In this document: positions 10,816-20,278 of the stretch, piece after piece
Numbering within the stretch: position 1 is the first letter of the stretch
Layout of the letters: each line of letters starts with the position of its first letter
Source: Sulfolobales archaeon
GTDB lineage: Archaea; Thermoproteota; Thermoprotei_A; Sulfolobales; AG1
NCBI GenBank assembly: GCA_038867615.1
Contig: JAWBYA010000002.1
Coordinates: forward strand, 128,001-192,000
Length of the DNA stretch: 64,000 bases
Direction of reading: 5' to 3'
Notes under the pieces: model-generated
Told to the model about the DNA's origin: nothing
What the model saw: the letters and a program-made list of their open reading frames with translations, nothing else
Databases searched by the model: none
Made by a program: the position numbers and the translations under genes

Positions 10816-11415
10816 CTAGCTACGCCCAGGATCCTTTCTAGCTATACCTCTAAGAACCTCAACAGCCCTTCTCCTGAACTCCTGGATATCGATACCATCG
10901 TTAACTATCATTATATCAGCCATTGCTATAACGCCTCCAAGCCCTAGCGAGAGTTCTAGGGAATCCCTTGCAGCAAACTCCTCCCAGCTCTTCGGATCCC
11001 CCTCCCTCCCCCTACTAGAAAGCCTCGCAAACCTGGTTTTAGGGCTAGCATGTATACCAACAATGATCACTTCCGAGAAGCTCTTTCTAAAAACCTCGAT
11101 CTCTCTCAAAGATCTCGAACCATCTATAACAACATAGCGACACCCCTCCGGACCTCCACGGCTCGAGAACACCTCACCAACCGTCATCTTGGCAACGAAA
11201 TCATCACCATATATCTTCCTAAGCTCTACAGCAACCATAGCCATGTTACTCCTGGTTATGGGAAGACCCCTCCTAACAAGCTCTCTCCTCACCACATCGC
11301 CCATAACATATACCTCGAAACCCATCTCCCTAGCGGTCTCTGAGAATATGCTCTTACCAGAGCCCGGCATGCCTGTAACCACGATGGCTATGACGCACTC
11401 GGTTTTCGTATCCAA
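10816..11415 (-). CDS. UPF0200 nucleotide kinase (dephospho-CoA/adenylate kinase-like)
   Basis: VTGMPGSGKS, MGDVVR, IDGSRS, RGREGDP, RD..EL.LG. Confidence 0.85.
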   Translation of the reverse strand: MDTKTECVIAIVVTGMPGSGKSIFSETAREMGFEVYVMGDVVRRELVRRGLPITRSNMAMVAVELRKIYGDDFVAKMTVGEVFSSRGGPEGCRYVVIDGSRSLREIEVFRKSFSEVIIVGIHASPKTRFARLSSRGREGDPKSWEEFAARDSLELSLGLGGVIAMADIMIVNDGIDIQEFRRRAVEVLRGIARKDPGRS

Positions 11416-11495: not shown

Positions 11496-11555
11496 TGGCG
11501 CCGCGGCCGGGATTTGAACCCGGGTCACGGGCTATCCGCAGCGCCCACAGGCCCC
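11496..11555 (-). tRNA. Isolated 3' half of tRNA-Asp(GUC) (exon 11496-11533) with 22-nt leader; probable trans-spliced split tRNA
   Basis: Minus strand reads GGGGCCUGUGGGCGCUGCGGAU|AGCCCGUGACCCGGGUUCAAAUCCCGGCCGCGGCGCCA, i.e. positions 38-76 including CCA. No D-arm or 5' acceptor strand upstream. TTTATAA box at 11580-11586 lies ~25 nt upstream. Confidence 0.8.
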
Positions 11556-11617
11556 AGATAGATATATGTGAAGAAATGCTTATAAATTAGAGCGTGGGTC
11601 GGGGTTAAAAAGCTCTT

Positions 11618-11947
11618 TTACACCTCTCCCTCCACTTCTTCGATCATTATTATGTTCTCCTCAGGTACTCCAAGCTCCTTGATCAATATGTTCTTTACCC
11701 TAAGCCTGTGGTCTCCCTGGAGCTCTATCCTTCCGTTCTTAGCAGTCCCTCCGGTGGCTAGTTTTGATTTAAGCATGGATGCTATTTTCCTTAGATCCTG
11801 TGTCTCGTCAAGCCCCTCTATTATTGTTACTTCTTTCCCAAACTTTCTTTTCTCTAAACGTATTTTTACAATCTGTTGTTCAACCATTAGCTGTCTACAT
11901 ATCTCTGGGGGGAGGCCTCCACATATATTCTCGAGAGAGCTTTTCAT
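11618..11947 (-). CDS. sui1: Translation initiation factor aIF1 (SUI1)
   Basis: [41 protein letters not shown]. Confidence 0.95.
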
Positions 11948-20191: not shown

Positions 20192-20278
20192 GCCGGGGTG
20201 CCCGAGCGGCCTAAGGGGCCGGCCTGGAGAGCCGGTGGGGGAAACCCCGCGCGGGTTCGAATCCCGCCCCCGGCGCCA
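20192..20278 (+). tRNA. tRNA-Ser(GGA), intronless, CCA encoded
   Basis: GCCGGGG acceptor stem, anticodon arm CCGGC-CTGGAGA-GCCGG, long variable arm GGGG-GAAA-CCCC, GTTCGAATC. Confidence 0.97.

Follow-up and report, generated by a model that had tools for sequence, protein, structure and literature searches.

The window analyzed here, a stretch of 64,000 nucleotides (G000:C2:128001-192000) from a genome of 2.22 Mb in 28 contigs that we call G000, contains a stand-alone 3' piece of tRNA-Asp(GUC), and the sequence evidence makes it very probable that this piece and two further genes, each transcribed separately, jointly make this tRNA. As the window gene encodes the last third only, the cell would need to join three RNAs for each tRNA-Asp. 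The sequences, their complementarity together with its conservation and covariation, and the genes for the enzymes are direct observations; that the pieces are transcribed, that the two reactions run in a given order, and that a mature tRNA-Asp exists is what we infer from them. The 3' piece (piece 3) and its surroundings comprise the following features:

11586-11580, minus strand: TTTATAA, TATA-box-like promoter element of piece 3 (read from the sequence)
11555-11534, minus strand: G+C-rich leader GGGGCCTGTGGGCGCTGCGGAT of 22 nt, putatively the removed intron half (sequence, folding, and partner scans)
11555-11540, minus strand: leader section predicted to pair with the mini-gene trailer over 16 bp (folding and geometry)
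11539-11536, minus strand: leader GCGG, central-helix strand facing C32-U35 (geometry)
11535-11534 plus A38, minus strand: 3' bulge with the splice site (geometry)
11533-11496, minus strand: 3' exon of tRNA-Asp(GUC), positions 38-73 (35 nt), plus encoded CCA at 11498-11496 (sequence)
11479-11476, minus strand: run of four T, the first after CCA, which may be an archaeal termination signal (sequence only)
11618-11947, minus strand: SUI1 translation initiation factor, upstream neighbor (PF01253, E 1.5e-20)
10816-11415, minus strand: P-loop kinase-like protein, downstream neighbor (AAA_17, E 5.1e-14)

A preliminary description of this locus had reported an exact tRNA 3' exon with a leader at 11533-11496 and TTTATAA about 25 nt upstream. 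Re-reading of the sequence reproduced these coordinates exactly, and the A+T-rich spacer between TTTATAA and the first G of the leader measures 24 nt on the minus strand of the window. [quoted passage not shown] Neither ARAGORN nor Rfam (at the gathering score) called the locus as a tRNA; the sole tRNA that these programs reported in the window is an ordinary tRNA-Ser(GGA) at 20192-20278 on the plus strand. With a permissive threshold, Rfam gave only sub-threshold tRNA-like matches to piece 3 (mascRNA, tmRNA) and no family for piece 1 or the mini-gene described below. The mascRNA-like match pairs 11540-11555 with 11499-11511 on the minus strand and scores 28.4 bits against a gathering score of 42.5. 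As the leader stretch GCTGCGG is able to pair with the acceptor 3' strand, piece 3 alone could form an acceptor/T-arm minihelix.

It had also been stated that the window holds no 5' half, and this was found to be the case: there is no matching 5' part, and the sole GCCGCGG match in the window (C2:145725) has no D arm. Within the leader, the 8-nt stretch GGGCCTGT is identical to tRNA positions 28-35. This identity to the anticodon strand had been noticed before and is real; a cis fold based on it can be drawn, but folding of the piece by itself gave a minimum-energy structure without this pairing. The repeat may go back to a duplicated anticodon arm or be a matter of chance, for which we roughly estimate a few per cent.

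The remaining parts of the tRNA are found outside the window. A pattern search of the whole G000 genome gave three loci starting like tRNA-Asp (GCCGCGGTAGTATAGCC...), of which C8:20996 and C3:236381 are contiguous tRNA-Glu genes. The other two genes of the proposed set are as follows:

G000:C2:58285-58319, plus strand: piece 1, positions 1-32 with a G+C-rich trailer, 81 kb from piece 3
G000:C5:~657-712: piece 2, a mini-gene of ~55 nt with leader, exon, and trailer, on another contig than the window
G000:C5:680-684: TGTCG, the sole exon of the mini-gene, U33-G37, 5 nt (sequence)

In piece 1, the match to the tRNA ends after position 32 and is followed by the trailer AGGTAGGCCGCCGGGGCCGCGG and then by TTTT. 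The preliminary description had predicted a distant 5' half of the GCCGCGG type carrying the complement of the window leader. The 5' piece recovered by the genome search stops at position 32, and there is no complementarity between its trailer and the window leader. The complement (CGGTGCCCACAGGCCCC) is instead located at C5:685-701, directly 3' of the 5-nt exon at C5:680-684. TGTCG is preceded by GGCTCCGGCGGCGCCCCCGAA, the 5' part of which complements the piece 1 trailer, and the mini-gene is flanked by ATATAA 23 nt upstream and by TTTTTATTTT downstream. As the tRNA-Glu loops of G000 read C-T-NNN-G-A on the same stem, TGTCG exactly fits positions 33-37 of an Asp(GUC) loop. A TTATAA-like box lies 23-26 nt upstream of each of the three pieces, suggesting that each is transcribed, and runs of T are found downstream of pieces 1 and 2. 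A box of this type occurs 15-40 nt upstream of 29 of the 42 tRNA genes of G000 versus 358 of 2000 random positions. No second middle gene that could serve as an alternative anticodon cassette was found in G000, and one middle gene was found per genome.

The pairing partners were also examined by genome-wide scans. In a duplex-energy scan of G000 that used 10,649 pre-filtered candidate sites, no other non-self site formed a better duplex with the window leader than C5:680-701, and a run-length scan showed 20 consecutive pairs between the two. For the G+C-rich trailer of piece 1, GU-permissive run lengths alone are noisy. This trailer has many G+C-rich chance partners, with runs of at least 13 pairs at 50 positions on both strands of the 2.2 Mb, and the mini-gene leader was outside its top 8 duplex partners by energy in the pre-filtered scan. 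By our arithmetic, the chance that such a run lies at most ~10 nt from the right place beside TGTCG is on the order of 1 in 10,000. The support for the helix between the piece 1 trailer and the mini-gene leader rests on its position, on covariation, and on a cis homologue, both of which are described below.

Both junctions can be drawn with exact geometry, that is, with two 3-nt bulges around a 4-bp helix. The central helix drawn for junction 1 (32/33) consists of C27-G30 (CGGG) and CCCG from the leader of the mini-gene; it lies between a 5' bulge C31 C32 ^ A and a 3' bulge A A ^ T33, beyond which GG/CC with an additional G-T pair, two bases left unpaired, and the long helix of 13 bp follow. 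As the exon-side helix is absent, this junction is of the relaxed HBh' type. At junction 2 (37/38), the partners in the central helix are C32-T35 and the GCGG at 11539-11536 in the window leader, C36 G37 ^ C and A T ^ A38 form the two bulges, and the motif is flanked by a 16-bp helix on one side and by the anticodon stem (27-31 with 39-43) on the other, corresponding to a canonical hBHBh'. The previously proposed 37/38 junction, with GCGG facing C32-U35 and the 3-nt bulge AT^A38, is thus reproduced by the drawn geometry.

An unconstrained two-strand fold of piece 1 and the mini-gene resulted in the exact motif of junction 1 at -59.4 kcal/mol, and a three-strand fold at -118.8 kcal/mol contained the acceptor stem and helices of 13 and 18 bp. 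At junction 2, the unconstrained minimum was a continuous helix in G000 and an extended anticodon stem in G001, not the bulge-helix-bulge, which when enforced carries an energy cost of 8.2 kcal/mol (G000) or 9.7 kcal/mol (G001). The corresponding cost in five ordinary cis-intron tRNA-Asp genes of relatives is 3.1-6.9 kcal/mol, and as these ordinary genes pay a cost too, the energy model is a poor judge of a motif that is recognized by protein. Direct folding of piece 1 with piece 3 gave the acceptor stem only, and an assembly from these two pieces without the mini-gene was therefore rejected.

In the assembly that we propose, the trailer of piece 1 would anneal to the mini-gene leader over 13 bp, generating the relaxed bulge-helix-bulge in which C27-G30 pair with CCCG and the bulges CC^A and AA^T33 contain the splice sites. 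The splicing endonuclease would then cut, and RtcB would ligate position 32 to position 33. The 32/33 product would subsequently anneal to piece 3 by the 16-bp helix as well as by the acceptor and anticodon stems, and C32-U35 would pair with GCGG of the leader to form the canonical 37/38 bulge-helix-bulge, which would be cut and ligated in turn. The order 32/33 before 37/38 is suggested by the fourth central pair of junction 2, which needs C32, as this residue would be linked to T33 only after the reaction at junction 1. It is conceivable, albeit rather unlikely, that the three pieces are real and that splicing starts at 37/38 or a single complex cuts both junctions; no data fix the order, and the three-strand fold holds all pieces simultaneously. 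However, before the 32/33 ligation, the central helix of junction 2 has only three of its four pairs, two of which are G-T wobbles in G000, and both motifs could presumably not be complete at once, as the residues C27-G30 needed by junction 1 must leave the anticodon stem. The holding of a 5-nt exon through two splicing reactions at high temperature would be unexplained unless the order is a strict one.

The genus of G000 was sampled by six draft genomes (G000-G005) with a completeness of 81-96%. Piece 1, the mini-gene, and piece 3 were all found in G000 (94% complete), G001 (96%), G002 (86%), and G003 (94%). Piece 1 and the mini-gene were found in G005 (93%), with no piece 3 on repeat search, and piece 1 was found in G004 (81%), with neither mini-gene nor piece 3 on repeat search. 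In all four complete sets, the mini-gene is on a separate contig from pieces 1 and 3, and in G000 and G003, a single contig carries both piece 1 and piece 3, which are convergent and separated by ~81 kb. A stand-alone 3' piece with the same TATA spacing, there with the box TTATAAG, is present in three other genomes of the genus. The preliminary claim of a promoter-bearing 3' exon of a trans-spliced tRNA-Asp(GUC) is supported.

The six genomes fall into two lineages, G000/G002/G003 and G001/G004/G005. Between them, five positions of the long helix of junction 1 are changed on both strands with complete complementarity, and the length of this helix is 13 bp in the lineage of G000 and 16 bp in the other. 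At junction 2, four pairs show a one-sided change with retained pairing; for example, the leader GCGG has become GTAG facing an invariant CTGT. The bases facing C32-U35 in 12 relatives, taking cis and trans arrangements together, are GCAG, GCGG, GTGG, GTAG, or ACAG, all of which pair.

In the sister genus (g3; G009 and G007), a single contiguous tRNA-Asp gene has two introns exactly at 32/33 and 37/38, with lengths of 22 or 21 nt and 16 nt, respectively. Intron 1 starts with AGG and ends with CCCCCGAA, matching the start of the piece 1 trailer and the end of the mini-gene leader, and intron 2 ends with GCAGAT or GCAGAC, resembling the end of the window leader. In a further genus (g2), tRNA-Asp is intron-less in four genomes (G006, G008, G010, G013), has one 37/38 intron in G012, and a D-loop intron in G011, and elsewhere in the order both intron-less tRNA-Asp genes and genes with one 37/38 intron were observed. 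The joined exons of G000 (35+5+35 nt) have no differences from the contiguous genes of G006 and G008 or from the exons of G009 and G007, and one to three differences from five more distant tRNA-Asp (a comparison without G030). Stand-alone 3' halves of tRNA-Asp with unrelated leaders occur in three other families (L015, L016, L025); they look like the published two-half type and arose separately. In an order-wide 12-mer scan for the context of the mini-exon, from which variants with other intron ends escape, 12 of 325 genomes matched, seven of them in the genus or sister genus and five with coding-like chance matches, and a 14-base scan for this context gave only chance bacterial matches among the matches listed.

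These comparisons bear on the question of whether the locus is an ordinary two-piece split tRNA-Asp, with a true 1-37 half in unassembled DNA and the mini-gene as a decaying relic. The published Asp splits do consist of two halves joined at 37/38, and G000 is 94% complete, but the sole 5' piece found in all six genomes of the genus stops at position 32 and has a trailer that fits the leader of the mini-gene, not that of the window piece. Moreover, the promoter, the T-run, the exact exon, and both helices of the mini-gene are kept in five genomes with compensatory changes, and the cis gene of the sister genus has the identical two junctions. We therefore regard an ordinary two-piece split as very improbable. 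Of the preliminary view of a split tRNA-Asp, the kind of gene stands, but the architecture has to be revised from two pieces to three. Taking a further step, we lean slightly towards the view that three things hold jointly: that a gene solely donates five nucleotides, that the order is obligatory with the 32/33 ligation creating the 37/38 motif, and that one archaeal family contains the whole path from an intron-less gene over one-intron and two-intron genes to three genes.

Other sources of tRNA-Asp were searched for in several ways. With E up to 1 as the limit, the Rfam tRNA model matched G000 at 44 sites, 43 of which exceed the gathering score, and no tRNA-Asp was among them. When introns were allowed, ARAGORN called 'tRNA-Asp' in G000 with introns of 1742 and 134 nt, and these calls were rejected as artefacts; the 'tRNA-Asp(gtc)' at G000:C5:102408-102637, with the 134-nt intron, arose from the 3' half of a split tRNA-Gln. 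Rfam likewise does not support several further ARAGORN calls, in which the introns measure 361-1742 nt. The contiguous stem-anticodon string was found in G000 only in two tRNA-Glu genes and at one non-tRNA site, and in G001-G005 it had no exact match and 22 one-mismatch matches to tRNA-Glu or non-tRNA sequences. None of the 24 GTC hairpin loops in G000 is followed by a T arm. An intact tRNA-Asp gene, which would have argued against the preliminary description, was thus found as a contiguous gene in none of the six genomes of the genus by Rfam or pattern search, all of these genomes being drafts of 81-96% completeness.

In metagenomes, piece 3 likewise stands alone; it occurs on eight contigs, with leaders of three variants and with TTATAAG at a constant distance in spite of unrelated spacer sequences, and neither a 5' nor a middle piece was found on them within 1.2-15 kb of sequence. 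The third leader variant, …GCGCAGTAGAC, is from the metagenome contig L231 (near 13770, minus strand) and has A where the genome lineages have T or C, which predicts a matching change in the as yet unseen trailer of its mini-gene. A metagenome scan for the compensatory leader variant predicted from the mini-gene of G005 gave no match.

Partial tRNA copies of another kind occur in G000. Partial 3' copies of tRNA-Gly(GCC) are found at both ends of the 41-kb contig C10 (C10:98 and C10:41203, minus strand), one of the two being a full gene cut by the contig end, and a partial copy of tRNA-Gly(TCC) lies near the end of C3 (C3:267227, minus strand). These partial tRNA-Gly copies look like att-site duplications around integrated elements. 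That piece 3 is likewise a dead remnant, i.e., an att-site 3' duplicate or a pseudogene as the preliminary description had considered, is the least probable reading, as the tRNA-Gly remnants at C3:267227 and C10:98, which could speak for it, start inside the tRNA and have no G+C-rich leader, fixed-distance TATA, or complementary partner, whereas the Asp piece has all three, is kept in four genomes and eight metagenome contigs despite differing spacers, has SUI1 and a kinase-like gene as neighbors, and had no intact copy or other tRNA-Asp source beside it in our searches.

The enzymes for an assembly from three genes are encoded in G000. The EndA domain (PF01974) gave two matches of 112 and 31 bits in ORFs of 198 and 162 aa, which fits the catalytic and structural subunits of the crenarchaeal heterotetramer, the roles being assigned by inference, and there is one RtcB ligase (577 bits). 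The two EndA genes are located at G000:C1:316186-316440 and C2:116528-116761, and that of RtcB at C5:117134-118438. Of 21 sequencing runs, two are metatranscriptomes, both in the form of assembled contigs, and apart from a 1968-nt contig of a related strain, which spans leader and exon and may be DNA, their contigs cover only the T-arm part of the locus that is common to other tRNAs. The unaligned ends at 11533 read as tRNA-Glu in the RNA runs and as the contiguous tRNA-Asp of other organisms in the DNA run.

Further disrupted tRNAs were observed in G000 and its family. A second trans-spliced system concerns tRNA-Gln (G000:C5:~102575-102640, C2:273527, and C9:3025, all on the plus strand). It comprises two 5' halves (CTG and TTG), identified in G000 only, each ending with G37 and carrying a trailer that ends with ...GCGCCGCCCC, and one 3' half with a complementary leader and encoded CCA that serves both. 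A stand-alone tRNA-Gln 3' half with leader is present in 12 of 14 family genomes; contiguous genes take its place in G011, and the search of G004 gave no such half. The introns of the family's tRNA-Glu genes (G000:C3:236293-236381, minus strand; L064; L066-L070) are non-canonical, interrupting either the D loop or the variable/T-arm region, and their positions vary from genome to genome; the family seems to be rich in mobile tRNA introns.

The closest known counterpart is the tri-split tRNA-Gly(UCC/GCC) of Caldivirga maquilingensis with a middle piece comprising positions 26-37 (PMC4390854, PMC4033280, PMC4090602), and in the sections of the cited papers that deal with the subject, tri-split tRNAs are listed only for this tRNA-Gly (PMC4033280, PMC4390854, PMC4090602, PMC10714607). 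As far as these sections describe it, the Caldivirga system and the tRNA-Asp described here are alike in having three pieces per tRNA that are separately transcribed (here putatively), in complementary leaders and trailers forming bulge-helix-bulge motifs with one canonical junction at 37/38, and in leader sequences that correspond to introns of related species. They differ in isotype (Asp versus Gly) and taxonomic order, in the second junction (32/33 versus 25/26 in the published account), and in the middle exon, which has 5 nt (33-37) here and 12 nt (26-37) there. To judge from the same accounts, alternative middle pieces for synonymous isoacceptors exist only in Caldivirga, whereas there is a single middle gene here, and the pieces found here are not common to another tRNA, unlike those of Caldivirga. 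As one GUC anticodon is enough for Asp, combinatorial middle pieces are a trait of Caldivirga and not part of the definition of a tri-split tRNA.

The preliminary description had taken the locus for another instance of the split tRNA-Asp of Aeropyrum and Thermosphaera. In the relevant part of Chan et al., these split genes consist of two adjacent halves joined at 37/38 by a canonical motif with a 14-bp stem, and the split tRNA-Asp of A. pernix was verified by RT-PCR and northern blot, whereas we find three dispersed pieces. In these respects, both systems share the isotype, a near-identical tRNA body, the 37/38 hBHBh' with a G+C-rich stem, and a 3' half with its own promoter 20-25 nt upstream of the leader; however, the published halves adjoin and contribute ~40 and 35 nt to the mature tRNA, and here there are three pieces with an extra 32/33 junction. 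The search of the window's own order covered genomes with published Asp splits of the Desulfurococcales type. No three-piece tRNA-Asp was found in the portion of the full-text literature that was accessible, and further Asp variants may be listed in the supplementary material of Chan et al. 2011.

The multiple-intron tRNA genes of crenarchaea contain, according to the parts of PMC4090602 that treat them, relaxed (HBh') motifs that are cut by the heterotetrameric EndA. The two-intron gene of G009 and G007 is of exactly this kind, and the central helix and bulges of junction 1 are the same as in the motif of such genes; in contrast to them, the intron hairpins are broken into separate transcription units in the window's genus. 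Position 32/33 as such is already known as a split site from Nanoarchaeum equitans, for which tRNA-Gln split at 32/33 is given in a table of PMC3218864, and in which two Glu 5' halves have one common 3' half (PMC3218864, PMC4390854). In these excerpts, N. equitans has no three-piece tRNA; as in N. equitans, G000 has 5' halves that share one 3' half.

The three genes described here would represent a second, independent origin of a tri-split tRNA in a different order, with a different isotype and a far smaller middle exon. We know of no smaller exon with its own gene than 5 nt. This raises the question of how a pentanucleotide exon and two splice reactions are coordinated at high temperature. 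A tRNA-Asp in three pieces also accounts for the fact that tRNA finders report the genomes of the genus without tRNA-Asp, and for the false one reported by ARAGORN. With contiguous genes, one intron, two introns, and three genes, a single family offers a natural series for testing the breakup of tRNA genes and, if our reading is true, this path would directly support the view that split tRNAs arose late from genes with introns rather than surviving from primordial half-genes.
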